64,000 nt of DNA from Escherichia coli (GCF_003991155.1 NZ_CP031293.1), one strand, 5' to 3'; shown: positions 19,543-40,682, counted from the stretch's first letter. Notes: generated by a model not told the origin, from the letters alone. Made by a program: numbers and translations.

Positions 19543-22500
19543 ATGGCCGACAACTTTACAGCCCGTAAGCACGGACAATGGAAAGTCATCAGCACCAAAC
19601 CGGATGTCTGTAAAACACCACGCGGAGATTCCACACCGCCTGTCCCCTACCCTGTCACAGCCAATATGGCTGAAGCAGTGATGGTGGTGCAGTCGGTGAA
19701 GCTGAACGGCTGCCCGGCAGTGGTCCTAAACCAGAGCACCATCCCTCAGACAAAGGGCGATGCCGCAGGTGCGGCAAAAGGTGTCAGCAGCGGTACAGTG
19801 GGTGATGTCTGCGAGCCGCTGGACCACAGCGAGACAGTATTTTTTGGCGGCAAGCCGATACTGCGTCACCACGATGAGTTCTGGATGAACAGCCGTAACA
19901 CCATCGGCCTAATCGTGGGCCAGCCGCCACCGGCAGGCGTGCCTGCGGAAGAAGCGGACCCGCCGGATGAACCGGAGACGGAAGAAGAGGAAGAAAAGAG
20001 CAGCTGGCTGGACTGGGTGCAGACAGGACTGGATATTGCCGGGTTTGCACCGGGCTTTGGTTTTTTTGCCGATATGCTGAATGCGGGTATCAGCCTGGCG
20101 CGTGGTAATTATGCTGACGCGTTTATGTCTGTGGCGGCCTCACTTCCGGGGATAGGTGATGCGGCAGCGGCTGGCAGGATGGCAGTTAAAGGACGAAAAG
20201 CAGCAAAGGCGGCTAAAGAAGCCGCCGAACGAGCCGCAAAGAAAAAGCTGGAGAAGGAGGCGGCAATGCGCTCCCGTGCGCTGAGAAAAGCCCAGAAGAA
20301 AGCGGCAGCTAAAAAGAAAGGGGGTATCGTTAAGGGGAAAGCGAAAAATAACAAAGGCAAAGGTAAGGGTGCGGAAAGCAGTGATTGTACCAAACCCGGC
20401 GAACCCGTGGACGCCGGAACCGGCGACTTTCTCCAGCACTTCAGCGTTCTTTCCCTTCCCGGCTCACTTCCTCTCACGCTTTCCCGGTTTTACCGTTCTC
20501 AGGCACAACATGGCGGCATCTTTGGTCCCAAATGGACCGATGAATGGTCCGTATCCCTGAAGGTACACACTGACGGCAACCTGCACTTCACTGACGGTGA
20601 AGGGGTGGAACTGTACTACCCCATTCCGCAGGACGGCATTTTTGAGGGTGCAGCGAACTCCCGCCAGGCACACTACCGGCTGACGGGCGACATGAGCGGA
20701 GAACTGTCGTTGTCCGACCGCCGCACACAGCAGACACAGATTTTTTCTCAGGCAGGCACAGGTACTTATTTGCTGTCTGCCCTTCATGACAATTACGGCA
20801 ACCGGATTGATTTTATCCGCACGGACGGCCTGCTGACAGAAATCCGCCACAGCGACGGCTACACGCTCGCGCTTGCCTGGCTACAGCAGCAACTAATGAG
20901 CATTGACCTGGCAACACCGCGGCGTCAGCGCCTTGTCACCTGTCAGTACGATGATAATGGTTATCTGGCAGAGTGCGATACTTTCCAGTTTTCTCATCTG
21001 TGGCATGAATACACGACTGAAGGGTTTATGACCCGCTGGCGGGATACGGATAAAACCTGCGTGGATATCCGTTACGACCCGCAGGGGCGCGCCATCAGCA
21101 CCCTGTCAACCGAAGGCTATTACGACGACCGTTTTATCTATAACGATGAAGAGCACTGTACCACCTACGTGGATGCAGAAGGCGGCGAAACCCGTTACTG
21201 GTATAACGAAGACGGCCTGGTCACCCACAGCACCGACCCGCTGGGCCGTGAAGAGATTACAGTATGGGAAAACACGCAACTTCAGTCGCGCACCGACGCG
21301 CTGGGGCGTAAAACAGCGTATGAATATAACGATGAGGGCGATATCTGGCATGTTGCCCTGCCGGGCGGCTACAGCCTCTATTACGACTACAACGACGCCG
21401 GGCAGTTAACCCGCCTGACCCTGCCGGGCGACCAGGTATGGCTGTGGGACTACGACGATAAGGGCAGCATGGTCTGCCTGACCGACCCGCAGGGCCGGAA
21501 ACAGCAGTTCAGCTACAGCCAACAGGGTGATTTACTGGCGCGGATTATGCCGGGCGGAGCCACCTGGCGCTGGAGCCATGACGCCCTGCACCAGGTGCGC
21601 GAGACCACTGCGCCGGACGGCGGCGTCACGCAGACTGAACAGGATATGCTGGGCCGCCTGCTGAGTGTGAAAGACCCGCTGGGCTTCACCACGCAGTTCC
21701 GCCACAGCAAAACCCACGCTGGGCCGCTGGGCAGCGTGGAAGAAATTAACCGCCCGGATGGCGTGCGGGAACTGATGCGCCAGAACAGTGAAAAGCTGCC
21801 GGAGAGCTTCACCGATGGCGAAGGCAAAACCACCCGCTACGAATATGGTGCATTTGACCTGTTAACGGCAGTTATCCGCCCGGATGGTGAACGGCTGGAG
21901 TGCCGCTACGACAAGCTGACCCGCCTGACCGAAATCACCAACGCGGAAGGTGAGCACTACCGTCTGGAATATGATAAAGCCGGGCAGCTTATCGCGGAAA
22001 CCGACTTCACCGGGCGCACACTGACCTACAGCTACGATGCGGCAGGCCGCTGTACCCGCACCACCTTCCCGGACGGCACTCACCTGAACCGCCGCTACAA
22101 CGTGACCGACCAGGTAACGGACGAGGAAGTCACCCAGGGCGACAGCAACCGTACCCTGAGCGCCACCACCTTCCTCTATGACACGCTGTGCCGCCTGGTG
22201 GAGGCGAAAAACGATGATGCCATCGTTACGTATGAATATGACAGTGCCAGCAGGGTTGTGGCCGAGACAATCAACGGCAGGCGTACAGAATACAGTTACG
22301 ACAATAATCTCGACACAGTTTCACAGCGCACCACCGCAGGCATCACAGAGCACTTCACCCGCAACCTGATGGGCTATCTGACCACCTGGCAGATAGCCGA
22401 CCATGCCCCGCTGACATTTGAACATGACCTGCGCGGCATGGAAACGTCCCGACGCAGCGAGGCCGGGTTTTACCAGACGCTGGCTTACACCCGCACAGGA

Positions 22501-24289: not shown

Positions 24290-26030
24290 ATGATGACTCG
24301 GTAATAATAACAAACGAAACCCTCAACGGCAGACGGACGGAATATGGCCACGACGCAGAACAGGATTATGTCACCCGGCGCACCACCGCAGGCATTACGG
24401 AACGTTTCACCCGCGGGTTGATGGGTGAGCTGACATCGTGGCAGATAGCCGACCATGCGCCGCTGGCATTTGAATATGACCTGCGCGGCCAGGAAACATC
24501 CAGACAAAGCGAGGCCGGATTTTACCAGACGCAGGGCTACACGCAGACAGGAATGCTGACAACGCAGCGTTCGGGAAGCCAGGCAGAGCCGGAGGCGAAG
24601 AATAAAGACCTGCAACGCCAGTGGCTGTACGACCATGCGTATAACCTGACGATGATATCGGACACGCTGCGCGGGACGATGGTCAACAGCGTGACAGCGA
24701 ACGACCAGATAAGCCATGCCACCTGGACGGGCAGCAGTAATATGCCGATGAGTGAGGAACGCTTCCTCTACGACAAAAACCTGAATATCACCGCCGCCAG
24801 ACCTGGGTGAACGAGGTACTGGAGAGCGAGACACATCAGCAGCAACAGCATGGCCGGGTGGCGTCGCGTGGACACAAAGAATGGCGACACTCAACGCACC
24901 GGATTAACCCGGACACTGGCAAGCCGGAGGAAGGGAAATTTGTCCGGGTGGTCAACGCGCACGGTATCACCTGGAAGTACGATATTAACGGTCGTCTGGT
25001 GGAGAAGCTGGTCGATAAAGGTGGCTATCGCCCTCTCCAGTGGCGTTACAAATGGGATTCACGCAGCCAGTTGACCGGGCTGGAAACACCGGATGGTGAA
25101 CGCTGGGAGTATAAATACGACCCGTTCGGCAGGCGCATCAGCAAACGCTGTACCAGCCACGATAAACCCGGTATGGATTTTCACTGGAACGGCGACCAGT
25201 TGACGGAGGAAATTCCGGTTGGTGTGGATGGCAAACCGGAAGACGAAAACGCCATCCGCTGGATATACGAGCCGGGAGATTTCACGCCGTTTGCGCGTTA
25301 TGAGAAGGGGCAACTGAATTATGCGGTGACGGACACGGTTGGACGAGTACAGGAACTGCTGACCGAAGACGGCCTGATTGTCTGGAAAGGCAAGCAGCAG
25401 CTATGGGGACGTGAGGAAGGCATCAATAAGGGCGATGCACCCACCTGTCGGTTACGTTTTCCGGGGCAGTATGAGGACACAGAATCGGGACTGTACTATA
25501 ACCGGTTCCGGTACTATGATTGCGGGACGGGGCAGTATATCTCTTCAGATCCGATTGGGCTGAGAGGGGGAATAAAACCATATGGCTATGTTCATAGTCC
25601 ATTAAATTATATTGACCCATTAGGTTTAGCTAACGCTAAAGTTATAGATAATGTTTTGCATATTGTGGATAAATTTGGAGTAAATGGGGCTGCTCCTGAT
25701 ACTGCAGCATCCAGAGAATTGGCTGAGTTTGTAAAAAGATGGAACGAGCAGATAGTGGCGAATGGTGGTTCAATGGCCAGACGTTCTGTTTGTAAAGAAG
25801 TCAGAAAAGCAGCAAGTGAAGCCGCCGCTGCTGAGAGAAAACTTAACCCAAGTTTATATGCTAATGGTGAAGTGGCGGGGCATATTCCAGATGTTGGATG
25901 GGGTGGAAAAATTGATGGTCCGTTTATGCCGTTAAGTCCAAAAGTAAATTCTTATATTGGTGGGTTAACTCAAGCAGTGCCTGTTGGTACAACTTATACA
26001 TCGGTAAGAATAGTGGACATTATACTATGA
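24290..26030 (+). CDS. Orphan rhs C-terminal cassette 1 (core fragment + distinct toxin tip), frameshifted near 24793
   Basis: Nucleotide and protein similarity to 22270..23580 of the main rhs; 1-bp deletion (atcaccgccgccagac vs atcacccgccgccagac) breaks the frame; ORF 24807..26030 carries DPLGL followed by a different C-terminus. Confidence 0.75.
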
Positions 26031-26554
26031 AAAAATTAAAAGAATTGATTAACGATATTTTGGTTGATTTAAAAATAAATATAACGGAATTACCTGTCAC
26101 TTTACACAGCCATGATAAAGTACCCACGCTAAAAAAAGATTACTATAGAAATCTTAGCCCTATGCTAAAGGTTAGATTTGGTATGTTCTCTAGTTGGAAG
26201 AATGCAACACATGGGGATTGGCTTTCAATAGAAGAGATGATGGAAATTTGGCGTGATGATTTGGTAATAAATGACCGATTGTGGCGAATTAAGGAGAATC
26301 AGATAGCTGCTCGTAATAATTGGGACAATGATGCTTCTTCGCTTTTCAAAAATAATAGATTATCACTTTTTGCTGGAAGTGAGTCTACCTATGAACGAAT
26401 ATATCTGCTTTGGTTAGATAGTGAAATTGAACCTGAGATATGGGTATATGACTGCAATGGTGAATCGAGATATAAAAATCTAGAGTCTTATTTAAATGCA
26501 TATATAAATGACGATGTTAGTGCTAGTAATGAGTCATGGAGAGCCAAATACTGA
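26027..26554 (+). CDS. Putative immunity protein for orphan toxin 1
   Basis: 175 aa, ATGA overlap with toxin stop, AT-rich. Confidence 0.5.
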   Translation: MKKLKELINDILVDLKINITELPVTLHSHDKVPTLKKDYYRNLSPMLKVRFGMFSSWKNATHGDWLSIEEMMEIWRDDLVINDRLWRIKENQIAARNNWDNDASSLFKNNRLSLFAGSESTYERIYLLWLDSEIEPEIWVYDCNGESRYKNLESYLNAYINDDVSASNESWRAKY

Positions 26555-26704: not shown

Positions 26705-28310
26705 CTAGTAGGGCTGTCTGACCACCTGGCAGATAGCGGACCATGCCCCGCTGACATTTGAGCATGACCTGCGCGGCATGGAAACCTCCCGACGCAGCGG
26801 GGCCGGATTTTACCAGACGCTGGCTTACACGCGCACAGGGATGCCAGCGAAGCAGAATGCCGGGGACCACCAGGCCGGGCCGCATGAGCGAAATAAAAGC
26901 CTGGAGCGGGAATGGCTTTACGACAAAGCGTATAACCTGACCGCAATCGCCGACTCGCTGCGCGGCTCCATGTTCAACACCATCACGGCAAACGACCAGA
27001 TAAGCCACGCCACCTGGACGGGTGATTCCAGCCAGTTTCCGCTGTGCGAGGAGCTGTTCACTTACGATAAAAACCTGAACATCACCCGCCGCCAGACCCG
27101 TGTGAATAACGTCCTGGAAAGCGAAACGCACCAGCAACAGCAGCATGGCCGGGTGATATCCAGTGAGCATGAAGGCTGGCGGCACTCAACGCACCGCATC
27201 AATCCGCAGACAGGAAAACCGGAAGAAGGGAAATTTGTCCGGGTGGTGAATGCCCATAACATCACCTGGAAATACGATGTTAACGGCAGGCTGGTACAGA
27301 AGCTGGTCGATAAAGGTGGCTACCGCCCTCTCGAATGGCGCTACAGATGGGATGCAAGAAGCCAGCTAACCGGACTGGAAACCCCGGATGGCGAACGCTG
27401 GGAATATAAATACGACCCGTTTGGCAGGCGCATCAGCAAACGCTGCACCAACCGCGACAAACCCGGCATGGATTTTCACTGGAACGGCGACCAGCTAACG
27501 GAGGAAATTCCGGTTGGCGTTAACGGTAAACCGGAAGACGAAAACGCCATCCGCTGGATATACGAGCCGGGAGATTTCACGCCGTTTGCGCGTTATGAGA
27601 AGGGGCAACTGAATTATGCGGTGACGGACACGGTTGGACGAGTACAGGAACTGCTGACCGAAGACGGCCTGATTGTCTGGAAAGGCAAGCAGCAGCTATG
27701 GGGACGTGAGGAAGGCATCAATAAGGGCGATGCACCCACCTGTCGGTTACGTTTTCCGGGGCAGTATGAGGACACAGAATCGGGACTGTACTATAACCGG
27801 TTCCGGTACTATGATTGCGAGACGGGGCAGTATATCTCTTCAGATCCCATAGGATTACTTGGGGGGATAAATCCTTATGGATATGTTCGTAACTCGCTGG
27901 AATTGATTGACCCTTGGGGGCTAGACAGTAAACGCGCTCGACTCCTCAAACAAAAAGGATTCCAAGAACATCATATTATCAGCGATAAAAACAGCTTAAC
28001 CAAAAACCATCCATTGTTGAAGGCCGCGGCATACGACCTACAGAAAATGAAAAACAAGATTTTCTTACCTACAAAATGTGAACTTCATGCAACTCGATCC
28101 ATTCATAAAGGGAGGCATCAAAAAAAGGTAAGTGAAAACCTGGCAAATGAAATGGACAAAGTGTTAGAACACGGGAGAAAACATGGGTGGACGCAAAAAC
28201 AATACAGTGACGCACTTGACGAAATAGTTGCTAAAGAAAGAGCCCTCTTGAAATCTGGCCATAGAGCTTTAAATAAAAACAGACGTGCATGGTCTGTTTT
28301 ACTAACTTAA
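26705..28310 (+). CDS. Orphan rhs C-terminal cassette 2 with HNH/AHH-like nuclease tip
   Basis: Similarity to main rhs from ~22380 onward; core ends DPWGL; C-terminus has EHHIIS ... H ... H pattern resembling the AHH-type HNH nuclease toxin domain. Confidence 0.7.
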
Positions 28311-28322
28311 CAGAGAAAATAT

Positions 28323-28880
28323 ATGTATAGATGGACAATCCCAGAACAATATGCCAATAAGTATATTGGAGAATATCAATATGAATCTTTTGATTACTTA
28401 CTTTTTTCTCATAGCACACCAATTGAAAGAGTTGAGAATATCAATCCAGTCATTATCTACGCGATGCCCGATGAAATGATAAATAAATATGATTGCTTGC
28501 CAAATAGTTCATTGATCCCCGTAGTTAATGAACGACTAAAGGACTTCCTGGAAACACATGCCAAAGGTAATGTTGAGTTTCATAAAATAGACCTTCACAC
28601 GAACAATGGACTCAAAGATGGTTTTTATCTTTTGAATACACTCACAAAACTACCGTTAATTGATATGCAGCACTCTCATTGCCAGTATATTCCCGGAACA
28701 ACAGCGATCATGGGGTTTGAACAGGTTTTTTTTATTGAAGAGCCTCCGGAAGATTTTTGCATTGCACGATGCGCAGAATATTCATCTTATCTTATGTTAT
28801 CTGATTCATTAGTAAAAAAAATGAAAAAAGAAAAATTTAAAGGAATTTCATATTCGAAAGTTCCTGTTCACCGAGGTTAA
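28323..28880 (+). CDS. Putative immunity protein for orphan toxin 2
   Basis: 185 aa ORF 13 nt after the toxin stop; AT-rich. Confidence 0.5.
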   Translation: MYRWTIPEQYANKYIGEYQYESFDYLLFSHSTPIERVENINPVIIYAMPDEMINKYDCLPNSSLIPVVNERLKDFLETHAKGNVEFHKIDLHTNNGLKDGFYLLNTLTKLPLIDMQHSHCQYIPGTTAIMGFEQVFFIEEPPEDFCIARCAEYSSYLMLSDSLVKKMKKEKFKGISYSKVPVHRG

Positions 28881-28966
28881 AATAATTGGACATATAACAA
28901 ATATATTAAATCGGTAGCATCTCCAGGGAAGGATCATCGTATTCGTATGCCGTAGGCACGCCGTAA

Positions 28967-29360
28967 TCTGGTATAACGAAGACGGCCTGCTCACCCGCAG
29001 CACCGACCCGCTCGGTCGGGAAGAGATTACGGTATGGGAGAACACGCAACTCCAGTCACGCACCGATGCACTGGGGCGTAAAACAGCGTATGAATACAAC
29101 GATGAGGGCGATATCTGGCACGTCGCCCTGCCGGGTGGTTACAGTCTGTACTATGACTACAACGACGCCGGACAGTTAACCCGCCTGACCCTGCCGGGCG
29201 ACCAGGTATGGCAGTGGGATTACGACGATAAGGGCAGCATGGTCTGCCTGACCGACCCGCAGGGCCGGAAACAGCAGTTCAGCTACTGCGCACAGGGGGA
29301 TTTACTGGCGCGGATTATGCCGGGCGGAGCCACCTGGCGCTGGAGCCATGACGCCCCAGG
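28967..29360 (+). pseudogene. Internal rhs core fragment
   Basis: Translation WYNEDGLLTRSTDPLGREEITVWENTQLQSRTDALGRKTAYEYNDEGDIWHVALPGG matches the main rhs at ~21185..21585; no start or stop context. Confidence 0.8.
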
Positions 29361-29384
29361 GAACAGGGAAAGATCACGTAACGC

Positions 29385-30658
29385 TGCTTTTTTGTACTAA
29401 ATAATTCGCATTTTATGTTTAAAAATTGAGATATTCCTCATTACCTAAAGCTTTTTTTTATTGCTTATACATGATCAAATACTCCTTACATAATTAAGGA
29501 GAACAAAATGGAACTTAAAAAATTGATGGAACATATTTCTATTATCCCCGATTACAGACAAGCCTGGAAAGTGGAACATAAATTATCGGATATTCTACTG
29601 TTGACTATTTGTGCCGTTATTTCGGGTGCAGAAGGCTGGGAAGATATAGAGGATTTTGGGGAAACACATCTCGATTTTTTGAAGCAATATGGTGATTTTG
29701 ATAATGGTATTCCTGTTCACGATACCATTGCCAGAGTTGTATCCTGTATCAGTCCTGCAAAATTTCACGAGTGCTTTATTAACTGGATGCGTGACTGCCA
29801 TTCTTCAGATGATAAAGACGTCATTGCAATTGATGGAAAAACACTCCGGCATTCTTATGACAAGAGTCGCCGCAAGGGTGCGATTCATGTCATTAGTGCG
29901 TTCTCAACAATGCACAGTCTGGTCATCGGACAGATCAGGACGGATGAGAAATCCAATGAAATTACAGCTATCCCTGAACTTCTTAACATGCTGGATATTA
30001 AAGGAAAAATCATCACAACTGATGCGATGGGTTGCCAGAAAGATATTGCAGAGAAGATACAAAAACAGGGCGGTGATTATTTATTCGCTGTAAAAGGAAA
30101 TCAGGGGCTGCTTAATAAAGCCTTTGAGGAAAAATTTCCACTGAAAGAATTAAATAATCCAGAGCATGACAGTTACGCCATTAGTGAAAAGAGTCACGGC
30201 AGAGAAGAAATCCGTCTTCATATTGTTTGCGATGTCCCTGATGAACTTATTGATTTCACGTTTGAATGGAAAGGACTGAAGAAATTATGCGTGGCAGTCT
30301 CCTTTCGGTCAATAATAGCAGAACAAAAGAAAGAGCCAGAAATGACGGTCAGATATTATATCAGTTCTGCTGATTTAACCGCAGAGAAGTTCGCCACAGC
30401 AATCCGAAACCACTGGCACGTGGAGAATAAGCTGCACTGGCGTCTGGACGTGGTAATGAATGAAGACGACTGCAAAATAAGAAGAGGAAACGCAGCAGAA
30501 TTATTTTCAGGGATACGGCACATTGCTATTAATATTTTGACGAATGATAAGGTATTCAAGGCAGGGTTAAGACGTAAGATGCGAAAAGCAGCCATGGACA
30601 GAAACTATCTCGCGTCAGTCCTTGCGGGGAGCGGGCTTTCGTAATCTTGCCCTGGGGT
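29385..30658 (+). mobile_element. ISAs1-family (H-repeat) insertion sequence, copy 1
   Basis: Near-identical ~120 bp leader and 3' end shared with copy 2; contains intact transposase ORF; boundaries approximate. Confidence 0.7.
29508..30644 (+). CDS. ISAs1-family transposase (H-repeat-associated protein)
   Basis: 378 aa, recognisable H-rpt/ISAs1 transposase sequence ([18 protein letters not shown]...). Confidence 0.85.
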
Positions 30659-30813
30659 TTTGGGCTAACGAAATGGAAAATTTAACATAAATTTAATTCA
30701 TGCTCTTGCCCTGATTTCGGGCTGACATAATAGTGAAGATTTTAACACAAATTTAATTCATGTCCTCATCCCAGTATAGACTTTAATTTTATTTTTTTGA
30801 TAAGGTACTACAT

Positions 30814-31647
30814 ATGGCTTTCGTTTCTGCGTTAGTTAATTTGCGTTATGATTTAAACAAATATATTGTAGAGTTACGACGCATTTCAAATCTTGCCGCG
30901 ACATTTCTTATGGAAGATGATTTTATTAAGAATTTCTATCTTAATGAAGTTGAAATAAGCATAAATAATTATAATTTTAGATTCAATAACGAGCGAAACC
31001 CATTCAAGCAAAGGGAAATAGTTTTTGAACTTAAAGAAGAAGTTGAGTTGGAAAAAAAAGAATATGATATATTAAGAATGAAAGATCATGTTACTTATAT
31101 GGTAACTGATATGTTTGAAGAACAAGGCGTGTTAAAATATGTAAAAATATTTGGAGGGGTTGCTACAGGAGGAATAGAACTTTTCACTGCCTATGGGTAT
31201 TATCAATTGGGTAAAACATTACACCTTAGAAGATTACGTGGGATAGCAATTGTTTTTGCTTCTTATGGCGTTGATAATATATGGGAGTCAGTCTCTCCTT
31301 TGATTTTTGAAGAAGCGAATGCAGGGCCTCTTAGACGTGTTATTCGGGGAATTGCTGGTGAGTTTGGAATAAGTGAAGATGATTCTGATTTAGGGTATAG
31401 TTTTGTTGAATTTTCATTGTCCTTATATAATACTTTTAATGCAAGAAAATTGTTTCCGAATGAAAATAGGTTAGTTATAGGTGTGGGAAGAAAAAGGCCA
31501 GGGACTGGTAGGCTTTTTAATAATGTAAGCTGGGATTATGCATCTAAATGGTCAAAAATGAATACAAATATGAAGATTTGGAATTTAGGGTATAGCGCTT
31601 ATAAAGCCAAACTGGAATTTTATGATGAGAAATATAAATTTAAATAA
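30814..31647 (+). CDS. Hypothetical protein, AT-rich, between the two ISAs1 copies
   Basis: 277 aa ORF with two hydrophobic segments (YVKIFGGVATGGIELFTAYGYY; GIAIVFASYGV); no family recognised. Confidence 0.4.
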   Translation: MAFVSALVNLRYDLNKYIVELRRISNLAATFLMEDDFIKNFYLNEVEISINNYNFRFNNERNPFKQREIVFELKEEVELEKKEYDILRMKDHVTYMVTDMFEEQGVLKYVKIFGGVATGGIELFTAYGYYQLGKTLHLRRLRGIAIVFASYGVDNIWESVSPLIFEEANAGPLRRVIRGIAGEFGISEDDSDLGYSFVEFSLSLYNTFNARKLFPNENRLVIGVGRKRPGTGRLFNNVSWDYASKWSKMNTNMKIWNLGYSAYKAKLEFYDEKYKFK

Positions 31648-31723
31648 TATTTCACATTACGTACTTTTAAAAAAGTATAATTATTAGCCGGTTAATTCAA
31701 TTATATAACACAGCCTCATTGCG

Positions 31724-31966
31724 CTAAAATAAAATTCGTATACCAAGTTTTATCAGCTTTAACTGAGTGATGATCTTTACATTATTGTTTTTTGCATCTG
31801 AGCATAAAATCATGACACTAAATATTGAAAACACAGCAGACATAAAGAAAAAAGCGGCCCCTCTTTCCAAGAGGATTCCGAGAATGAAAGCAAAAAATGC
31901 CACTGCCGGAAACCATAGCGACAAAGCGTCTTTTGCAGAGTCATATATCACATCTATTAGTGTCAA
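31724..31966 (-). CDS. Hypothetical small membrane protein
   Basis: 80 aa ORF with two predicted transmembrane helices; coding status uncertain. Confidence 0.25.
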   Translation of the reverse strand: MTLIDVIYDSAKDALSLWFPAVAFFAFILGILLERGAAFFFMSAVFSIFSVMILCSDAKNNNVKIITQLKLIKLGIRILF

Positions 31967-32169
31967 ATCTTTAGTTAAATTTGGATGAAGAGTTTTTTAA
32001 TATTTTTAAAATTATGCCTAAGACTGAATAACTCGTTATATTTAAAACCGTTAGTAATAATTTTACGCCTTACTTTTTCCAGTTTCATTTATTATCACTC
32101 CTTGAGATCTTTAAATTATTATAGTGTATTTTTTAAGTGAGTCAATGCATCAGAGAAAGATCATCAGAA

Positions 32170-33445
32170 GAACTCTTTTTGTACTAAATAATTCGCATTT
32201 TATGTTTAAAAATTGAGATATTCCTCATTGTCTGAAGCTGTTTTTTATTGCTTATACATGATCAAATACTCCTTACATAATTAAGGAGAACAAAATGGAA
32301 CTTAAAAAATTGATGGAACATATTTCTATTATTCCCGATTACAGACAAGTCTGGAAAGTGGAACATAAATTGTCTGATATTCTACTGCTGACTATTTGTG
32401 CCGTTATTTCGGGTGCAGAAGGTTGGGAAGATATAGAGGATTTTGGGGAAACACATCTCGATTTTTTAAAACAATACGGTGATTTTGAAAATGGTATTCC
32501 TGTTCACGATACCATTGCCAGAGTTGTATCCTGTATCAGTCCTGCAAAATTTCACGAGTGCTTTATTAACTGGATGCGTGACTGCCATTCTTCAGATGAT
32601 AAAGACGTCATCGTAATTGATGGAAAAACACTCTGGCATTATTATGACAAGAGTCGCCGCAAGGGAGCGATTCATGTCATTAGTGCGTTCTCAACAATGC
32701 ACAGTCTGGTCATCGGACAGATCAAGACGGATGAGAAATCCAATGAGATTACAGCTATCCCAGAACTTCTTAACATGCTGGATATTAAAGGAAAAATCAT
32801 CACAACTGATGCGATGGGTTGCCAGAAAGATATTGCAGAGAAGATACAAAACAGGGAGGTGATTATTTATTCGCTGTAAAAGGAAACCAGGGGCGGCTAA
32901 ATAAAGCCTTCGAGGAAAAATTTCCGCTGAAAGAATTAAATAATCCAGAGCATGACAGTTACGCAATGAGTGAAAAGAGTCACGGCAGAGAAGAAATCCG
33001 TCTTCACATTGTTTGCGATGTCCCTGATGAACTTATTGATTTCACGTTTGAATGGAAAGGTCTGAAGAAATTATGCGTGGCAGTCTCCTTTCGGTCAATA
33101 ATAGCAGAACAAAAGAAAGAGCCAGAAATGACGGTCAGATATTATATCAGTTCTGCTGATTTAACCGCAGAGAAGTTCGCCACAGCAATCCGAAACCACT
33201 GGCACGTGGAGAATAAGCTGCACTGGCGTCTGGACGTGGTAATGAATGAAGACGACTGCAAAATAAGAAGAGGAAACGCCGCAGAATTATTTTCAGGGAT
33301 ACGGCACATCGCTATTAATATTTTAACGAATGATAAGGTATTCAAGGCAGGGTTAAGACGTAAGATGCGAAAAGCTGCCATGGACAGAAACTATCTCGCG
33401 TCAGTCCTTGCGGGGAGCGGGCTTTCGTAATCTTTCCCTGGAGTG
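32170..33445 (+). mobile_element. ISAs1-family insertion sequence, copy 2 (transposase frameshifted)
   Basis: Same leader and ends as copy 1; direct orientation; boundaries approximate. Confidence 0.7.
32295..33430 (+). pseudogene. ISAs1-family transposase, frameshifted
   Basis: Split into ORFs 32295..32879 and 32819..33430; 1-bp deletion in an A-run near 32850 relative to copy 1 (acaaaaacagggcgg vs acaaaacagggagg). Confidence 0.8.
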
Positions 33446-35448
33446 AGTATTTTGATTTACTGAAATATCTTATTAGAAACGGATATATTGATGAAACATA
33501 TAATGACTATATAACATATTTCTATGAAAACAGTTTAAACCGGAGTGACAAAGCTTTTTTAAGAAGTATTTCCGATAAAAAAGGGAAAGATTTTTCTTAT
33601 GCTTTGAATAACCCCTCATTAATAGCAAGTCGATTACAACTTTATGATTATAGCCAGCAAGAAACGTTAAATTTTGATTTGTTGGATCACCTCTTGGATT
33701 CATTGACTCAACATACAACACAACTTAAGACATTTATATCTCAACTGAAAAAAGATAAAAATCTCCGATTTATTAAAGAGTACATGGACACTGAACGTAA
33801 TATTTCAAGGTTAATCCCTTTATTAAATCAGCAGTGGAGTGATTTTTTTCAATTGATGTTGAATGAAAAATTATATACACAACAACAAATAAAATCATAT
33901 TCCCTGGACAGTCTTTATTTTTCAAATCAAGACACTTTATTAAAAGTCAACCATAATGGCTGTCTATCACAGTATATATCTGAACATAAAACATATCTAA
34001 ATATAGAACAGCCTCAAATTCAAATGCTAATAGATAAGTTTAAATGTTTAGATATTTTATTTAAGAATTTATCATATAACAACTCAGAAGCATCTTTATT
34101 TTCAGCCGTATATAAAGAGTCACTTTATGAACTTAATTATCATAATTTAAAAGAGCTTATTTGCTATGAATACAAATGTGCAGACGAAGATAAAATCAAA
34201 CACCAAAACTTCACCATATTACTAAGCAATGCATCAACATATCTTTATAAAAAGATAGATAAAAATATCGAAAAATATATAGCTATAGTTCTCGAAAATT
34301 GTGAGAATAGTATAGCTGATGCTGAAAATGCAGTTGTTGTAATTATTAATAAATCAGGAATTGATGAGGAAATAAAAAAATCATACATAGCAAAACTCAA
34401 TAATAGATTGAGTGACTTAAGTAAAATAGATGAATCAAATATGTGGTCTTACTTATTAGACCAACGAAAAATAGAGTATACTGCTGAGAATATTATTTTT
34501 TATTTTTCTCAGCATAGTGAATTAGATGAAACAATAATTAAATTTATAGATAGCGAAAAATCTATTACACTAGACTATTATAGTGGGTTTACAGACGATA
34601 TCAAAGAGAGATTTTTCGACAAGGTCATCATTTGTGAACAAATTAGCGATAACAAATACTTCGAGATATTATCTTCATTAGACTATTGCTATGAATCATT
34701 TGATATATCCGGTTTGCAGGATGCGAAGATAAAAGTACTTATCGACACTAATATAATTCGAATGTCCATTCTGAATCTAGAGTTTCTAAGAACTACATAT
34801 CCTAATAACCTTATGCATTATATAAATAAAAATATAATCGACTATATTAAACTACAGACAGGTGAATCTGCTGTTAGTGACACAAATGAAATTTTGAACG
34901 TCTTAGAATTAGATATTGATGATTCACAAAAAGAAAAGCTATCAATGATAGTAGATACTCCAATCTCTATTCAAAATAATAAATACTCAACTCTCTTTAA
35001 GAAACACATCCTCACAAATAAATTAGATATAAATGACATCCCTTATCTCATAGAAAATTATGGCACATTAGTAGCACTTCAATCGACAATTCTAATCATT
35101 TTAAGTGGTCACGTCAATGAGGTAAAAGATCATGCTGATAAATTATCGATTAACTTGTTAGAGGTCTTAATAAAGGATGCTCATTTTATCCATGATGATA
35201 ATGTAGAATTATTTGTAAAGCAGATAACTAACATGAATAAAATACAAATCAAGAAGTTTCTAAAACTGATTAATTCTTCTGAGTTAACTATCTTATTAGA
35301 TAAAAAATTGGCATCGATAAAAATAAGCTCGTCTAATGAAAAAATACTTAAGAGTTTCATAACAAATGGATTAATAAAATCCTACAGCCAAAGTACTGAA
35401 GATCCTGAATCATACATAATAGATTTCCCTGAGGAGTTTCTTGATTAA
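33439..35448 (+). CDS. AT-rich hypothetical protein, probably 5'-truncated at the ISAs1 end
   Basis: Frame open from the IS junction (33439) to 35448 (669 codons); no in-frame ATG in the first ~110 codons; Asn/Lys/Ile/Tyr-rich; no family recognised. Confidence 0.5.
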   Translation, partial: WSEYFDLLKYLIRNGYIDETYNDYITYFYENSLNRSDKAFLRSISDKKGKDFSYALNNPSLIASRLQLYDYSQQETLNFDLLDHLLDSLTQHTTQLKTFISQLKKDKNLRFIKEYMDTERNISRLIPLLNQQWSDFFQLMLNEKLYTQQQIKSYSLDSLYFSNQDTLLKVNHNGCLSQYISEHKTYLNIEQPQIQMLIDKFKCLDILFKNLSYNNSEASLFSAVYKESLYELNYHNLKELICYEYKCADEDKIKHQNFTILLSNASTYLYKKIDKNIEKYIAIVLENCENSIADAENAVVVIINKSGIDEEIKKSYIAKLNNRLSDLSKIDESNMWSYLLDQRKIEYTAENIIFYFSQHSELDETIIKFIDSEKSITLDYYSGFTDDIKERFFDKVIICEQISDNKYFEILSSLDYCYESFDISGLQDAKIKVLIDTNIIRMSILNLEFLRTTYPNNLMHYINKNIIDYIKLQTGESAVSDTNEILNVLELDIDDSQKEKLSMIVDTPISIQNNKYSTLFKKHILTNKLDINDIPYLIENYGTLVALQSTILIILSGHVNEVKDHADKLSINLLEVLIKDAHFIHDDNVELFVKQITNMNKIQIKKFLKLINSSELTILLDKKLASIKISSSNEKILKSFITNGLIKSYSQSTEDPESYIIDFPEEFLD

Positions 35449-35493
35449 TGCTAATCTTTAACAAGATGTCATAAATACACTTCAACAAAGAAA

Positions 35494-35526
35494 AAACCAC
35501 CAGCATCTCAATTGCTGGTGGTTTTT
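35494..35526 (+). terminator. Rho-independent terminator
   Basis: AAAAAACCACCAGCA-loop-TGCTGGTGGTTTTTC hairpin with T-tract. Confidence 0.6.
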
Positions 35527-35582
35527 CTTCTCCTAATTATCAGGAATCACCTCACGTAGCGGTCGGATGCAGTAGAAAAATT

Positions 35583-35676
35583 GGTGGTCATTCTGGTGGT
35601 CTTGACAATCTCGATTTTTTGTTTTAGCTTACCAATCAGCCAGTTAATGGCTACGGCGATCCCAGTCAGAGGAGCC
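35583..35676 (+). repeat. Island-end repeat copy 1, ending in the tRNA-Asn 3'-terminal 15-mer
   Basis: ~94 bp near-identical to 48837..48930 and to the reverse complement of 63231..63325; ends CCAGTCAGAGGAGCC, matching the tRNA-Asn acceptor/T-arm 3' end. Confidence 0.8.
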
Positions 35677-35682
35677 CAATTT

Positions 35683-35714
35683 CTGAAAAACCCGCTTTTA
35701 TAGCGGGCTTTTCG
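35683..35714 (-). terminator. Terminator downstream of cbl
   Basis: GCCCGCT-ATAAAAG-AGCGGGT hairpin followed by T-run on the minus strand. Confidence 0.5.
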
Positions 35715-36665
35715 CTATATCTGATAATCAATTTCCTCTTCACTGTTTTCCATCACCTGGCGCTTGATATCCTCAACTGACAGTCCTGCATTACAAAGTT
35801 CCAGAAAGCGCCAGACATAGTTACGTTGAAGTTGCCCTCGCTTCAGTCCCAACCAGACAGTATTAGCATCGAAAAGATGCCTCGTATCCAGACGGATTAA
35901 ATTCTTTTCCTCTTGTTCACCACTGGATTGTTCGGCAACTAATCCGATCCCCAGCCCAAGAGCAACATAGGTTTTAATGACATCAGAATCCTGCGCACTT
36001 AATACAATATCTGCCAGCAAACCTTTGCGGGCAAATGCGTCATCAATACGTGAGCGCCCCGTAATCCCCTGTCGGTAAGTAATTAACGGCCACTTCGCTA
36101 TTGATTCCAGCGTCAACGGTGTAATTTGCGTCAAGGGATGATCGAGTGGAACAAGCAAACTATGGTGCCAACGAAACCACGGGAAGGCGACGAGCTGCGG
36201 GTCATTACTCAAACGCTCGCTGGCGATACCAATATCAGCTTCGCCATTTTGCAACAACGTCGCAATTTCCTGTGGTGTACCCTGGATTAGCTCCAGCCGA
36301 ACCTCCGGGAAAAGTTCGCGAAAAGCTTTAATGACCTCAGGCAAGCTATAACGTGCCTGAGTATGCGTCGTTGCAATAGTGAGAACGCCAGACGTATCGT
36401 TGGTAAACAGGTCTGCAAGCCGACGAACATTACTGGCTTCATTCAGAATACGTTCTGCAATGACCAGTAATGCTTTGCCCGGTTCAGTCATGCCCAGCAG
36501 TCGCTTACCTCGTCGAACAAATATTTCGATGCCAAGTTCATCCTCCAGTTCCCGAATATGACGGCTAACGCCTGACTGTGAGGTAAAAAGCATATTCGCA
36601 ACCTCTGTCAGGTTGTAATCCTGACGTGCAGCCTCGCGGATTATCTTTAGTTGTTGGAAATTCAC
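35715..36665 (-). CDS. cbl: LysR-family regulator Cbl (CysB-like)
   Basis: 316 aa; sequence recognised as E. coli Cbl (MNFQQLKIIREAARQDYNLTEVANMLFTSQSGVSRHIRELE...). Confidence 0.9.
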   Translation of the reverse strand: MNFQQLKIIREAARQDYNLTEVANMLFTSQSGVSRHIRELEDELGIEIFVRRGKRLLGMTEPGKALLVIAERILNEASNVRRLADLFTNDTSGVLTIATTHTQARYSLPEVIKAFRELFPEVRLELIQGTPQEIATLLQNGEADIGIASERLSNDPQLVAFPWFRWHHSLLVPLDHPLTQITPLTLESIAKWPLITYRQGITGRSRIDDAFARKGLLADIVLSAQDSDVIKTYVALGLGIGLVAEQSSGEQEEKNLIRLDTRHLFDANTVWLGLKRGQLQRNYVWRFLELCNAGLSVEDIKRQVMENSEEEIDYQI

Positions 36666-38008: not shown

Positions 38009-38084
38009 TCCTCTGTAGTTCAGTCGGTAGAACGGCGGACTGTTAATCCGTATGTCACTGGTTCGAGTCCAGTCAGAGGAGCCA
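38009..38084 (+). tRNA. asnV: tRNA-Asn (anticodon GTT)
   Basis: 76 nt TCCTCTGTAGTTCAGTCGGTAGAACGGCGGACTGTTAATCCGTATGTCACTGGTTCGAGTCCAGTCAGAGGAGCCA; cloverleaf consistent, anticodon GTT at 38042..38044; gene symbol inferred from position next to nac. Confidence 0.9.
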
Positions 38085-38250
38085 AATTTTAGTCTTGAGA
38101 CATCTCTATAAGTCTCAGGATAGTTAAAAAACAAGAACTTATCTTTACCCGGTTGTCTCGCAAGAGGCTGCTGGGTTTCTTGACATCCATAGTTTTTAGG
38201 GGCCTAATCAGGGGCCTCACGGTTCGGTGAGCAAACGGAGCCCCCACGCT

Positions 38251-39513
38251 ATGGCATTAACAGACACCGCTATTCGCAAGACTAAACCCTCTGACAAACC
38301 CTTCAAAATGACGGACAGTTCTGGACTGTACCTGTTGATCAAACCTAACGGCTCAAAACTCTGGTATATGAAGTACCGCATCGACGGCAAAGAGAAGAAA
38401 CTGGCCTTTGGCCCCTACCCGGAGATCTCCCTGTTGCAGGCTCGCCGCCTGCGCGAAACAGCACGCAATAACATTCATGCAGGCGTCGATCCGGCTGCGG
38501 TGAAGCAAACCGAGAAACAGAAGAGGAAAAACGGGCAGACGTTCAGCCAGATCGCCATCAACTGGCATAGCGAGCATAAACGCTGGTCTGAGCATTACGC
38601 GAAAACGGTTATGCGCAGGCTGGAAATGTACGTTTTCCCGGATATCGGGGATCGCCTTATCGAGGAGATCGAAACGGAGGATTTGTTATTCACGTTGCGC
38701 AAGGTAGAGAGTAAAGGCTTTCTGGAAATCACCGCGCGGCTGAAAAACTACGTCACCGATATCATGCACTACGCGATGAAAAAGAAACTGCTCAAAGCGA
38801 ACCCGGCGCTGTATCTGGACGGTGAGTTTGCCGCGCCAGAAACCAGTCACTACCCGGCCCTGTCGCTGGACAAATTGCCTGAGCTTTTAACCCGGACGGA
38901 TAGCTACTGCGGCAGGCTGCTGACAAAATACGCGCTTAAGCTGTCGCTGATTTTTTTTGTGCGCTCCAGCGAACTACGCTTTGCGCGCTGGAGTGAGATC
39001 GACTGGCAGCAGAAGTTATGGATAATCCCGGAAGAGCGCGAACAGATCGAAAACGTGCGCTTCTCTTACCGGGGGTCGAAAATGAAAATCCAGCACATTG
39101 TGCCGCTGTCGGATCAGGCGATTGCGATACTGAAACAGATCGAGGCCCTCTCCGGGCATCTGGCCTTTATTTTTCCCGGCGAATACGACCAGGACAAGTG
39201 CATGAGCGACAACACCGTCAACAAGGCGCTGCGCGTGATGGGTTACGACACCAAAAAGGATATCTGCGGGCATGGCTTCCGGGCAATGGCCTGTAGTGCG
39301 CTGAGCGAATCGGGATTATGGAGCAAAGAAGCCATTGAAAAGCAGATGAGCCACCAGGAAAGAAACAGCGTCCGTGCTGCCTATATTCACAAGGCTGAAT
39401 ATCTGGAGGAACGGATCGAGATGATGCAGTGGTGGTCAGATTATCTTGATGCAAACAGTGACGGGTATGTCTCGGCTTACCAGTATGCCCGCCGCCTAAA
39501 ACAGGCGTCGTAA
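38251..39513 (+). CDS. int: P4-like tyrosine integrase
   Basis: ORF 38227..39513; probable start MALTDTAIRKTKP at 38251; phage-integrase family features; lies directly 3' of the tRNA. Confidence 0.85.
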   Translation: MALTDTAIRKTKPSDKPFKMTDSSGLYLLIKPNGSKLWYMKYRIDGKEKKLAFGPYPEISLLQARRLRETARNNIHAGVDPAAVKQTEKQKRKNGQTFSQIAINWHSEHKRWSEHYAKTVMRRLEMYVFPDIGDRLIEEIETEDLLFTLRKVESKGFLEITARLKNYVTDIMHYAMKKKLLKANPALYLDGEFAAPETSHYPALSLDKLPELLTRTDSYCGRLLTKYALKLSLIFFVRSSELRFARWSEIDWQQKLWIIPEEREQIENVRFSYRGSKMKIQHIVPLSDQAIAILKQIEALSGHLAFIFPGEYDQDKCMSDNTVNKALRVMGYDTKKDICGHGFRAMACSALSESGLWSKEAIEKQMSHQERNSVRAAYIHKAEYLEERIEMMQWWSDYLDANSDGYVSAYQYARRLKQAS

Positions 39514-39636
39514 GTTAACAAAGCATCAGAGGGGGAAAAGGTATATTCCCCCTTTGTGCGTTTCAAATGTCGATGCTGACTGTAGCTTTTAAACTAAATT
39601 ACTGGATAAAAAGTAGCTTTTAAGCTACTATCTTTT

Positions 39637-39954
39637 ATGAAAACGATAAAGACCTACATAACTGCCGACGGGCGAGATCTGTATGCAGAGTTTTTTAAAG
39701 GGTTACGCGACCCCATCGCGAAGGCAAAGATCGCTTCCCGGATCAACCGGATGGCTTCGGACAATTTTGGCGACCATAAGCCCTGCCGGGAAGGTGTCTG
39801 GGAACTCAGGATAGATCAAGGGGCTGGGTATCGGGTTTATTACAGCCTGGTGGATGGAGAAGTCGTCCTGTTGATTCTGGCTGGCGACAAGCGTACGCAG
39901 GATGCAGATATAGATGAGGCTATTCGCTGCCTCAAAGACTATTTGAAGAGGTGA
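39637..39954 (+). CDS. RelE/ParE-superfamily toxin, HigB-like
   Basis: 105 aa; 3 nt before the antitoxin-like gene; toxin-first order typical of HigBA. Confidence 0.6.
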   Translation: MKTIKTYITADGRDLYAEFFKGLRDPIAKAKIASRINRMASDNFGDHKPCREGVWELRIDQGAGYRVYYSLVDGEVVLLILAGDKRTQDADIDEAIRCLKDYLKR

Positions 39955-39957
39955 TGT

Positions 39958-40266
39958 ATGGCGAAAGAACGTTTATATGATGATGTCATGGTGGAAGCGC
40001 TCCGGGAAGATCCTGCTTTTGCTCAGGCCTATCTGCATCAGGCATTTCTGGATATGGATGAAGATGGCGGTCAGGAAGCTTTTTTACTCGCGTTACGCCA
40101 TGTTGTTGAAGCGCGGGGAGGAATGGCGACGGTTGCCCAGAAAGCCGGTGTATCGCGTGAATCACTGTACCGCACGCTCTCCCCGACCGGCAACCCGACA
40201 CTGAAAACACTCCGCAGCGTCGTCCACGCCGCAGGTTTTCAGTTCTCTGCGCTGGCAAGTGCCTGA
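39958..40266 (+). CDS. HigA-like antitoxin (HTH)
   Basis: 102 aa; sequence resembles addiction-module antidote proteins (GVSRESLYRTLSPTGNPTLKTL helix-turn-helix region). Confidence 0.6.
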   Translation: MAKERLYDDVMVEALREDPAFAQAYLHQAFLDMDEDGGQEAFLLALRHVVEARGGMATVAQKAGVSRESLYRTLSPTGNPTLKTLRSVVHAAGFQFSALASA

Positions 40267-40388
40267 GTAGTTTTACATTTTGCAGCGATAATATAAATTG
40301 TAAATCATAATCCCTCCGTTGCTCTGTTCTGAGCAACGGATTACTTTGCATATTATCTGCTTTGCTAATCCATCAATTTTTAATTACC

Positions 40389-40682
40389 TTACATGGAAGC
40401 AACATACTCCATTAAATTATCTAATAAAAAATCAACCTTACTTATACCTTCATTTACATTATCGGCATAGATAAGTTCTACGAGCTTCATCCAACTTAAA
40501 TTGGAACGTACATTGTATTGTAAAAGGAGCCACTCTCTAAATCCCTCTAACATTTTACCGTCAAAGGAAAAATCCATCCCTAGTATAAAAGCCACAGTGT
40601 TTTCATAGTTATTTTCAAGTAGATACATATCGATATGCTTCTTAAAAAAAACAATTTTTTTTAGGAGGATATTTTTATTCAT
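40389..40682 (-). CDS. Putative immunity protein for orphan rhs toxin
   Basis: 97 aa, start 3 nt after the toxin stop, AT-rich. Confidence 0.5.
   Translation of the reverse strand: MNKNILLKKIVFFKKHIDMYLLENNYENTVAFILGMDFSFDGKMLEGFREWLLLQYNVRSNLSWMKLVELIYADNVNEGISKVDFLLDNLMEYVASM

Follow-up and report, generated by a model that had tools for sequence, protein, structure and literature searches.

The 64-kb stretch of Escherichia coli DNA analysed here (hereafter the window) carries a T6SS island with tssB/C/E/F/G, hcp, vgrG, DUF2169, a gene for a 1472-aa PAAR-Rhs protein, and orphan Rhs tips with their immunity genes. All of these lie upstream of an AT-rich DUF4225 cassette, which is the last unit of the island and is bracketed by two IS copies of the ISAs1 family. 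Between the IS copies the G+C content is 31%, compared with 49% window-wide, and the cassette block itself (30786-32135) has 30.7%. The region lies near a tRNA-Asn integration hotspot, and a search of 28800-35800 gave no Rfam match. The features of the locus are as follows.

28323..28880: imm11-family immunity gene, belonging to the orphan Rhs tips
28968..29356, + strand: orphan Rhs mid-core fragment of 389 bp forming the left flank of IS copy 1, with 93% identity to 21198-21586 of the window's main PAAR-Rhs gene
29357..29363, + strand: CAGGGAA, a 7-nt stretch that separates the end of the Rhs homology from IS copy 1 and exactly repeats the initial 7 nt of the IS left end
29364..30654, + strand: copy 1 of the ISAs1-family H-repeat (ISEc1-like), 1291 bp, with the terminal inverted repeat CAGGGAAAGATCACG.../...CGTAATCTTGCCCTG
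29508..30644, + strand: intact transposase gene of copy 1, 378 aa (RefSeq: 'ISAs1-like element ISEc1 family transposase')
30655-30714 and 30715-30774, + strand: a stacked pair of ~60-bp remnants derived from the right end of a second ISAs1 element, of Salmonella type
30786..32135: conserved DUF4225 effector/partner block of 1.35 kb, shared with IS-free relatives
30814..31647, + strand: intact gene for a DUF4225-family T6SS effector of 277 aa (Pfam PF13988)
31724..32088, - strand: putative immunity gene of a 121-aa two-TM partner family, a pseudogene here (DNA alignment with the related loci L003 and L013)
32118..32145, - strand: sigma-70-like promoter upstream of the partner gene, TTGACT-16-TATAAT, an 11/12 consensus match (consensus scan; pattern match only)
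32151..33440, + strand: copy 2 of the ISAs1-family H-repeat, 1290 bp, in which the left terminus is a variant one and the transposase gene is frameshifted (RefSeq 'frameshifted')
33441..35448, + strand: 3' 54% of a gene for a 1242-aa Tmn-like (KAP/YobI-type NTPase) defence protein, cut by IS copy 2

The two IS copies are direct repeats of ~1.29 kb that are 97% identical and have unlike left ends. As is typical of the ISAs1 family, they are ~1.3 kb long, have one gene for a ~378-aa DDE_Tnp_1 transposase and end in imperfect terminal inverted repeats. The copy 1 transposase shares 60% identity with that of the Salmonella locus L005, which bears DDE_Tnp_1_assoc and DDE_Tnp_1. The first-pass annotation had described two direct copies, the first intact and the second inactivated by a 1-bp deletion, and this was borne out: the copy 2 transposase gene is split into 32295..32879 and 32819..33430 by the loss of one base from an A-run (A4 at 32848-32851 versus A5 in copy 1). 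The overall extent of 29385-33445 given there did not hold, as the terminal inverted repeats delimit the copies at 29364-30654 and 32151-33440. For the left-end variant of copy 2, matches in thousands of E. coli genomes fix the start exactly at 32151. Both left-terminus variants are widespread in E. coli, each on its own, and H-repeat elements occur in 5200 of 5426 E. coli genomes (median, 4 places). Inspection of the flanking sequences revealed no target duplication at the ends of either copy or around the whole unit; its absence at each copy fits adjacent deletions or recombination after insertion. One candidate, AGTGAGT on both sides of copy 2, was rejected because the left occurrence is offset by 8 nt and the boundary is fixed at 32151. 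The CAGGGAA in front of copy 1 may have been left behind by the left end of an earlier IS.

Directly to the right of copy 1, positions 30671-30714 match the final 43 bp of the Salmonella L005 ISAs1 element (7620-7662) at 88.6% identity, and the two ~60-bp units share 77% identity with one another. A direct repeat of ~23 bp had been noted here. It does exist (30674-30702 and 30734-30762, 86% identical), but it is the core of the ~60-bp tandem unit homologous to an ISAs1 right end. Such stacking hints at repeated insertion of ISAs1 elements at each other's ends, or at recombination with them.

Within the cassette, the 277-aa ORF at 30814..31647 was confirmed. It had been assigned to no recognisable family, with nothing to identify it, but the protein matches PF13988 over the full length of the model (E=1.2e-32; residues 72-249, model positions 2-164 of 165), and RefSeq too annotates it as DUF4225. 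Full-length homologues measure 275-284 aa and the ORF aligns end to end with its orthologues; the homologues also include a 1973-aa protein with a C-terminal DUF4225 match. The two hydrophobic segments reported for the ORF are mild, glycine-rich helices only, with maximum Kyte-Doolittle 19-residue means of 1.14 and 0.92, below the usual TM range. An AlphaFold2 model based on a 32-sequence alignment was all-helical and poor (mean pLDDT 58.7, pTM 0.45). When this predicted structure was compared with AFDB50 using Foldseek, DUF4225 proteins made up 47 of the top 50 matches, with low TM-scores, and the remaining three were labelled 'uncharacterized' or 'putative membrane'. Against PDB sequences, a profile search found no match below E=0.45, and the predicted model and the structure searches offered no clue to the mechanism. 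Neither the toxin nor the 80-aa and 37-aa ORFs on the opposite strand had a match in NCBIfam or PADLOC, and no second copy of the toxin or partner gene was found in the window. The toxin gene is without the usual hcp or vgrG neighbour, and a consensus scan predicted no + strand promoter between it and IS copy 1.

The 80-aa two-helix ORF on the - strand (31724..31966) had been listed as a small membrane protein in its own right; the ORF exists, but it represents the 3' two thirds of a broken 121-aa gene. The other piece encodes 37 aa (31975..32088), and DNA alignment with L003 and L013 identified the 1-bp deletion that splits them as a T7-to-T6 contraction (T6 at 31993-31998). A single frame with an internal stop was rejected, since the deletion places the two ORFs in different frames. 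Among the 30 E. coli genomes that bear the unit, the gene is frameshifted in 28 and intact at 121 aa (WP_075861615.1) in two, strains 980-2 and UID2309220003; genome annotation leaves it uncalled in 28 of the 30. In an alignment of the partner family, 22 columns are invariant, and the proteins have two TM helices. A basic N-terminal region of ~55 residues (12 K+R) precedes the helices, which are joined by a very short loop (0 K+R) and followed by a basic C-terminal tail (4 K+R), so that both ends are predicted to be cytoplasmic. Searches gave no match for the family in Pfam (alignment search), NCBIfam or PADLOC. In addition to the promoter-like site, an AAGGAG Shine-Dalgarno sequence can be read 8 nt before the partner ATG at 32088.

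The possibility that these ORFs are unconserved was not borne out, as both the toxin and the partner family are conserved across Enterobacterales loci. The block at 30786..32135 shows 78% nucleotide identity to 3798-5154 of L003 (Enterobacteriaceae MGYG-HGUT-00110) and 71% to 7996-9145 of Salmonella L005. Rhs fragments homologous to 28968..29356 also lie upstream of the cassette in these two loci, and in L003 the DUF4225 cassette follows the Rhs fragment without an IS. In all seven loci that were fully read (38-79% identity), a convergent ORF of 121-129 aa is found directly downstream of DUF4225. We surveyed the neighbourhoods of DUF4225 in 25 species-representative Enterobacterales genomes. 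Partner-family ORFs are present on the opposite strand just downstream of DUF4225 in 21 of the 25 loci, 15 of which have tandem partner copies (2-4), and three of the four loci without a partner are contig ends. The gene directly upstream is hcp in 20 of the 25 and vgrG in one (Enterobacter L016), the latter also in the Enterobacter loci L007 and L011. Two distant members differ: in L040 the convergent neighbour, a two-TM protein of 121 aa, shows no detectable sequence similarity to the partner family, and in L041 a multi-TM neighbour is encoded on the same strand as DUF4225. The convergent arrangement is therefore common but not universal. The cargo does not recur next to H-repeats in the surveyed species, where all 25 loci lack an ISAs1 transposase within 6 kb of DUF4225, although in the Salmonella relative an element of ISAs1 type closely precedes the DUF4225 gene. 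Given this case, a recurrent link between ISAs1 and the cassette, or the Rhs-array end, is possible.

On the right, the Tmn-like reading frame is open directly from the junction with IS copy 2, and 33441..35448 shares 97% identity with the 3' portion of the E. coli F163 gene (L002 10280..14008). The full-length F163 homologue (1242 aa) matches the PADLOC Tmn model through residues 247-489 (E=5e-61), and the window's remaining C-terminal 668 codons gave no match to that model; the window ORF is a truncated Tmn remnant. The entire IS-cassette-IS unit is present in 30 of 5426 complete E. coli genomes, at one place each. In all 30 this place is chromosomal, with the Rhs array on one side and cbl on the other, and no plasmid carries the unit. 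These genomes differ by just 0-2 substitutions over 1.5 kb, which indicates that there has been little time for decay so far. They represent a single E. coli lineage, in which 28 genomes keep the T6SS and the other two form a T6SS-deleted branch.

The layout had been likened to a composite transposon, and the part of that description concerning two bracketing direct copies stands. A unit that arrived by transposition, with the two ISAs1 copies jointly moving the DUF4225 cassette, would be in keeping with two direct elements of the same family around a compositionally distinct 1.5-kb segment and with the 25-nt inverted repeat (80% complementary) formed by the outermost ends (copy 1 left, copy 2 right). 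Both transposase genes are intact in two genomes, and an ISAs1 element lies upstream of DUF4225 in the Salmonella relative. However, no target duplication surrounds the unit or either copy, and the outer flanks are unrelated: the left flank, ...CATGACGCCC(CAGGGAA), is Rhs core and the right flank, GAGTGAGTATTTTG, is the middle of the Tmn-like gene. These two flanks are contiguous nowhere, and the upstream Tmn sequence in F163, ...GTTATCAAAGG, is absent from all IS junctions in the window. Moreover, the copies are 3% diverged with different left termini, and the unit occupies a single chromosomal locus in all 30 genomes. The cassette follows the same Rhs fragment in the IS-free L003, cassettes of relatives are found at the Rhs-array end or beside hcp or vgrG without ISAs1, and none of the 25 other species has ISAs1 near DUF4225. 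The composite-transposon reading is thus largely refuted, and we consider it very improbable. Rather, two different ISAs1/H-repeat variants would have inserted independently on either side of the cassette and caused adjacent deletions. The lost DNA would include what lay between the Rhs fragment and the cassette, as well as the 5' half of the Tmn-like defence gene. Two homopolymer contractions would later, in the window's lineage, have broken the immunity gene and the copy-2 transposase gene and left the toxin gene intact.

Taken together, we interpret the AT-rich block 30786-32135 as an orphan T6SS effector/immunity cassette bracketed by two separate H-repeat insertions, not as a composite transposon, with a probability of roughly 0.8. 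A DUF4225 protein encoded after hcp has been described as a T6SS1-dependent antibacterial effector (Jana et al. 2022, mSystems 7:e00723-22, PMC9765294). This Vibrio protein, DUF4225^18764, is toxic only in the periplasm and non-toxic in the cytoplasm, causes lysis, and is neutralised by the adjacent-encoded small TM protein Imm4225; the domain is also fused to PAAR, VgrG, Hcp, Rhs and CDI-type delivery domains (PMC9765294). The cassette family combines a full-length Pfam match, linkage to the T6SS (hcp, vgrG, PAAR) and an adjacent small TM gene. By analogy with the Vibrio member, the DUF4225 toxin would be loaded on Hcp or VgrG and injected into the periplasm of neighbours, lysing them, and the convergent gene would encode a 121-aa inner-membrane protein as putative cognate immunity. 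Strict co-occurrence with DUF4225, the tandem paralogue arrays and the analogy with Imm4225 suggest that the partner is most likely the cognate immunity protein for the toxin and would act within the membrane. A convergent arrangement of effector and immunity genes is unusual, which counts against this role.

The first-pass annotation had proposed a toxin/immunity or defence pair. It was right in kind about the former, with a DUF4225 protein and a conserved membrane partner that is very probably immunity; the latter found no PADLOC match. An intracellular toxin-antitoxin or anti-phage defence pair, unrelated to secretion, might be suspected from a two-gene, AT-rich, IS-flanked module beside a Tmn remnant and near the tRNA-Asn hotspot. 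Yet neither protein matches PADLOC, DUF4225 directly follows hcp in 20 of 25 species and vgrG in Enterobacter, and the 1973-aa homologue has the domain at its C-terminus. Considering also that the tested family member is harmless in the cytoplasm and toxic in the periplasm, and that the domain is fused to delivery domains (PMC9765294), we give such a pair hardly any credence.

Whether the orphan effector/immunity cassette still works is a separate matter. It may be as described by descent but non-working in this lineage, a decaying relic in which the toxin ORF is intact for want of time. The cassette is cut off from hcp and vgrG, its partner gene is frameshifted in 28 of 30 genomes, and the promoter scan predicted nothing on the + strand ahead of the toxin gene. 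The 0-2 substitutions over 1.5 kb among the 30 genomes point the same way, as do the surrounding scars, namely the Rhs fragment, the IS-end remnants, the truncated Tmn gene and the frameshifted transposase gene. In the T6SS-positive branch (28 genomes) an intact toxin gene accompanies a split immunity gene, and it is the T6SS-deleted branch (2 genomes) that has the immunity gene intact; an intact toxin with a frameshifted immunity gene in 28 T6SS-keeping genomes is hard to square with an actively delivered effector. On the other hand, the toxin ORF has its full length, with end-to-end alignment to its orthologues, and read-through from IS copy 1, which points the same way, could express it. 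As for the partner, a strong promoter-like site and a Shine-Dalgarno sequence precede the split gene, and translation of its 80-aa TM part might restart 8 nt after the 37-aa ORF terminates. Furthermore, orphan effectors distant from hcp or vgrG are commonly functional (PMC9765294). On balance, we consider a non-working cassette unlikely, though a reading to be taken seriously.

If the partner is indeed immunity, either its 80-aa TM fragment would be enough for protection or the orphan effector would be silent, as this T6SS-positive E. coli lineage tolerates a frameshift in the partner gene. Enterobacterial DUF4225 effectors have a conserved opposite-strand partner that is usually unnamed or uncalled by annotation and that forms tandem arrays, like immunity genes. 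We tentatively suggest that the convergent 121-129-aa two-TM proteins could be an undescribed immunity family for these effectors, working inside the membrane; in that case, the toxin target would be the inner membrane. Were the immunity role confirmed, a topology with almost nothing periplasmic would narrow the DUF4225 mode of action towards a membrane target. Through the analysis a 'hypothetical' AT-rich segment gains a functional assignment, and the notion of a mystery cargo carried by a transposon is corrected. The practical value is small: the cassette is ordinary bacterial-warfare gene clutter, and the toxin family is already known.

The closest known system is DUF4225^18764/Imm4225^18764 of Vibrio parahaemolyticus CFSAN018764. 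Like the Vibrio toxin, the window protein is a stand-alone PF13988 protein of ~280 aa with orthologues directly after hcp, the sequence link between the two being the Pfam domain only. In both systems a small multi-TM protein is encoded beside the 3' end of the toxin gene, and Vibrio DUF4225 modules can likewise be orphan or auxiliary, with mobility genes alongside. Unlike the Vibrio system, the window cassette is located at the distal end of a PAAR-Rhs orphan array and not beside hcp. The partner also differs from Imm4225, with 121 aa, 2 TM helices, a ~55-residue cytoplasmic N-terminal region and a convergent orientation compared with 89 aa, 3 TM helices and a 'downstream' position. The bracketing elements have counterparts in E. 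coli K-12, where work of the C. W. Hill laboratory in the 1990s reportedly associated the H-repeat (H-rpt, ISEc1; ISAs1 family) with RhsB, RhsC and RhsE. The H-repeats of the K-12 Rhs loci are 1.29 kb long with a 378-aa DDE transposase, lie downstream of the Rhs core/tip in AT-rich DNA and are often defective. In contrast to known H-repeats at Rhs loci, two left-end variants here bracket one T6SS cassette, and next to copy 1 there are stacked 60-bp remnants from the right end of a third variant, a Salmonella-like one. Finally, the locus resembles orphan Rhs-CT/immunity arrays in that the cassette follows PAAR-Rhs and orphan tips in AT-rich DNA with recombination scars, but its terminal cassette is not an Rhs tip: an independent effector gene of the cargo type, which has a start codon of its own, is paired there with an immunity gene encoded on the other strand.

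The 277-aa protein, for which the first-pass annotation had found no recognisable family, matched Pfam DUF4225 across the whole model (E=1.2e-32), in agreement with its RefSeq name. The two hydrophobic segments described earlier are present, but as glycine-rich helices whose hydropathy is only moderate (maxima 1.14 and 0.92). Its AF2 model was poor (pLDDT 58.7); Foldseek hits were DUF4225 proteins almost without exception, and the PDB gave no relative with an E-value under 0.45. In the sole experimental study on DUF4225 (Jana et al. 2022, PMC9765294), a Vibrio parahaemolyticus member encoded after hcp was a T6SS1-dependent antibacterial effector, harmless in the cytoplasm but able to lyse E. 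coli once targeted to the periplasm. The adjacent gene encodes Imm4225 (89 aa, three TM helices), which confers immunity, and the domain is widespread, either stand-alone or fused to PAAR, VgrG, Hcp, Rhs or CDI-type delivery domains (PMC9765294).

The window is E. coli chromosome; 25 complete RefSeq genomes match the segment at 100% identity and five more at ≥99.9%. According to the RefSeq annotation of one of these 30 genomes (L001) and our ORF map, the order runs from T6SS core genes through hcp, vgrG and DUF2169 to a 1472-aa PAAR-Rhs gene. Next come orphan Rhs tips with their own immunity genes, ISAs1 copy 1, the DUF4225 gene and the frameshifted ISAs1 copy 2, followed by a "hypothetical protein" gene, cbl, nac and tRNA-Asn.

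Features of the window (coordinates, strand where assigned, description)
~1-24400: T6SS island, with vgrG and DUF2169 at 16360-19540
24807-26554: further orphan Rhs pieces
26778-28880: orphan Rhs C-terminal fragment (510 aa; Rhs-associated core and C-terminal tip), then an imm11-family immunity gene (185 aa)
29364-30654: ISAs1 copy 1, 1291 bp, limits from terminal inverted repeats
30655-30714 and 30715-30774: two ~60-bp units, 77% identical to each other
30814-31647, + strand: DUF4225 gene
31724-32088, - strand: partner gene
32151-33440: ISAs1 copy 2, 1290 bp, limits from terminal inverted repeats
33441-35448, + strand: "hypothetical" ORF, the 3' 54% of a 1242-aa Tmn-like (KAP/YobI-type NTPase) defence gene
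38009-48426: second island, with an integrase, a RelE/ParE-type TA pair, an IS3 element and a truncated DUF2169 gene
41795-45883, - strand: 1362-aa Rhs protein of the second island, with small ORFs downstream
49169-57223, + strand: very long ORF, 2684 aa

The T6SS island was rare, being found in only 28 of 5426 complete E. coli genomes at ≥99% identity; beyond these, the closest vgrG in E. coli was ~72% identical to that of the window. It is probably a horizontally acquired cluster. The second island, past cbl, nac and tRNA-Asn, is described from the annotation of L001.

Reading seven loci in full (L003, L005, L007 with two tandem pairs, and L009 to L012), with DUF4225 homologues 38-79% identical, revealed in every case an opposite-strand ORF of 121-129 aa that abuts or overlaps the 3' end of the DUF4225 gene. 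None of these ORFs had a Pfam match. We then searched 25 loci, from one genome per species, with an HMM of this partner family; they came from Enterobacter, Kosakonia, Mixta, Winslowiella, Edaphovirga, Erwinia, Phytobacter, Photorhabdus, Pectobacterium and Brenneria. Partner ORFs were detected in 21 loci, only on the opposite strand and just downstream of DUF4225, and three of the four loci without a match were contigs ending at that point. Two to four tandem partner copies occurred in 15 of the 21, a pattern typical of immunity genes. The gene immediately upstream of DUF4225 was hcp at 20 of the 25 loci and vgrG at the Enterobacter locus. Judged from these sequences, DUF4225 and its partner form a conserved effector/partner cassette. 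In L040, a very distant member, hcp and DUF4225 are likewise accompanied by a convergent 121-aa two-TM ORF, but this ORF shows no detectable similarity to the partner family; in another distant member (L041), the neighbour of DUF4225 is a multi-TM protein on the same strand.

In Enterobacter cancerogenus (L007, 8001-10846) the pair is tandemly duplicated after vgrG, with a 3' fragment of vgrG between the copies, and several Photorhabdus species (L026, L035) carry one DUF4225 gene followed by up to four partner paralogues.

Twenty-two columns of the partner-family alignment are invariant, and they include the motifs K-I-x-T-N-G-F near the N-terminus and K-L-x-K-L-x-x-R near the C-terminus. Two TM helices are joined by a loop of ~6 residues, and the concentration of K and R in the N-terminal region (12) and the tail (4) predicts a cytoplasmic location for both ends. 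We infer that the partner is a putative immunity protein of the DUF4225 effector. At 365 nt, the gene in the window is 1 nt short of the 366-nt partner gene; alignment with L003 (Enterobacteriaceae MGYG-HGUT-00110) and E. coli strain 980-2 shows that the missing base belongs to a T-run (T6 instead of T7, 31993-31998). Thus, the 80-aa membrane ORF reported earlier exists, but as a fragment of the split partner gene, beside a 37-aa ORF (31975-32088). Upstream of the latter are AAGGAG and a sigma-70-like site (32145-32118, 11/12 consensus, a pattern match only).

The intact partner protein (WP_075861615.1) is annotated in two of the 30 genomes, 980-2 and UID2309220003, which also have an intact copy-2 transposase gene and carry an IS3 element in place of the main part of the T6SS island. 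A 6.9-kb comparison of the window with 980-2 showed only four substitutions and the two homopolymer indels. Both frameshifts (31993-31998 and 32848-32851) occur in exactly the 28 genomes with the island's vgrG and DUF2169, a co-occurrence that reflects one phylogenetic split and so proves no association. The T6SS-positive lineage does, however, retain an intact toxin gene next to a putative immunity gene that is broken. This may be tolerated if the orphan effector is unexpressed or unloaded, and no + strand promoter was predicted upstream of the toxin gene. The 80-aa TM fragment, re-initiated 8 nt past the stop of the 37-aa ORF, could also suffice for immunity, or the partner may not be the immunity protein.

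Regarding the flanking elements, the two direct ISAs1 copies proposed from the sequence were borne out (97% identity), as was the inactivation of copy 2 by a 1-bp deletion that splits its transposase gene (A4 at 32848-32851 versus A5 in copy 1). The first 25 nt of copy 2 are unlike those of copy 1. In thousands of other E. coli genomes, matches to this variant start precisely at position 32151, so it represents a true alternative H-repeat terminus. The short direct repeat noted previously also exists; it belongs, however, to the two ~60-bp units, each of which finishes like an IS terminus, ...TTAATTCATG(N7-10)CCCTG/CCCAG. Over 44 aligned positions, the first unit matches the final 43 bp of the Salmonella-type ISAs1 right end at 88.6% identity, and homology with L003 begins only 3' of both. 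By these matches, 30655-30774 consists of stacked Salmonella-type ISAs1 right-end remnants directly after copy 1. A regulatory role of the repeat in the cassette was rejected, as the units are IS-end remnants. Together with CAGGGAA, a 7-nt copy of the IS left tip directly outside copy 1 (29357-29363), the remnants suggest that elements repeatedly inserted at ISAs1 ends, or that such ends recombined.

On the right flank, the truncated Tmn-like ORF is 97% identical to the 3' part of a 1242-aa ORF in E. coli F163 for which the PADLOC Tmn model gave a hit at E=5e-61. There, the intact gene is preceded by a 1197-aa MkoC-like AAA protein, both genes lying (L002, 6614-14008) in an integrase island at tRNA-Asn. 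Comparison with F163 indicates that the window has lost the 5' half of the Tmn-like gene and the AAA gene.

The first-pass annotation had likened the layout to a composite transposon. That two ISAs1 copies brought the cassette here as such a unit is highly improbable, even though they bracket it in direct orientation. There is no target duplication at either copy or around the whole unit, and the flanks are unrelated: on the left, 389 bp from the middle of an Rhs core (93% identity to 21198-21586 in the main Rhs gene), on the right, the interior of the Tmn-like gene. The F163 sequence just 5' of the Tmn-gene junction is found at no IS junction of the window. Moreover, the copies are different H-repeat variants, and the IS-cassette-IS unit occurs once per genome, always at the same locus. 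Within 6 kb of DUF4225, ISAs1 transposase genes were absent from all 25 species loci. In the IS-free L003, a homologous Rhs fragment is followed after ~1.3 kb by the homologous cassette (shared block, window 30786-32135), which implies that copy 1 and the remnants replaced pre-existing DNA and did not deliver the cassette.

It has long been known that H-repeats tend to occupy the AT-rich tails of Rhs loci. The order in Salmonella (L005), from Rhs array to ISAs1-type element to cassette, fits this habit; its transposase shares 60% protein identity with that of copy 1, and there may be a regional insertion preference. The locus is of modest interest for its conserved, unnamed convergent partner family and the frameshift of this partner within a T6SS-positive lineage. 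Overall, the toxin belongs to a known family and lies in a typical, scarred tail of a T6SS/Rhs island, with ordinary H-repeats on both sides.
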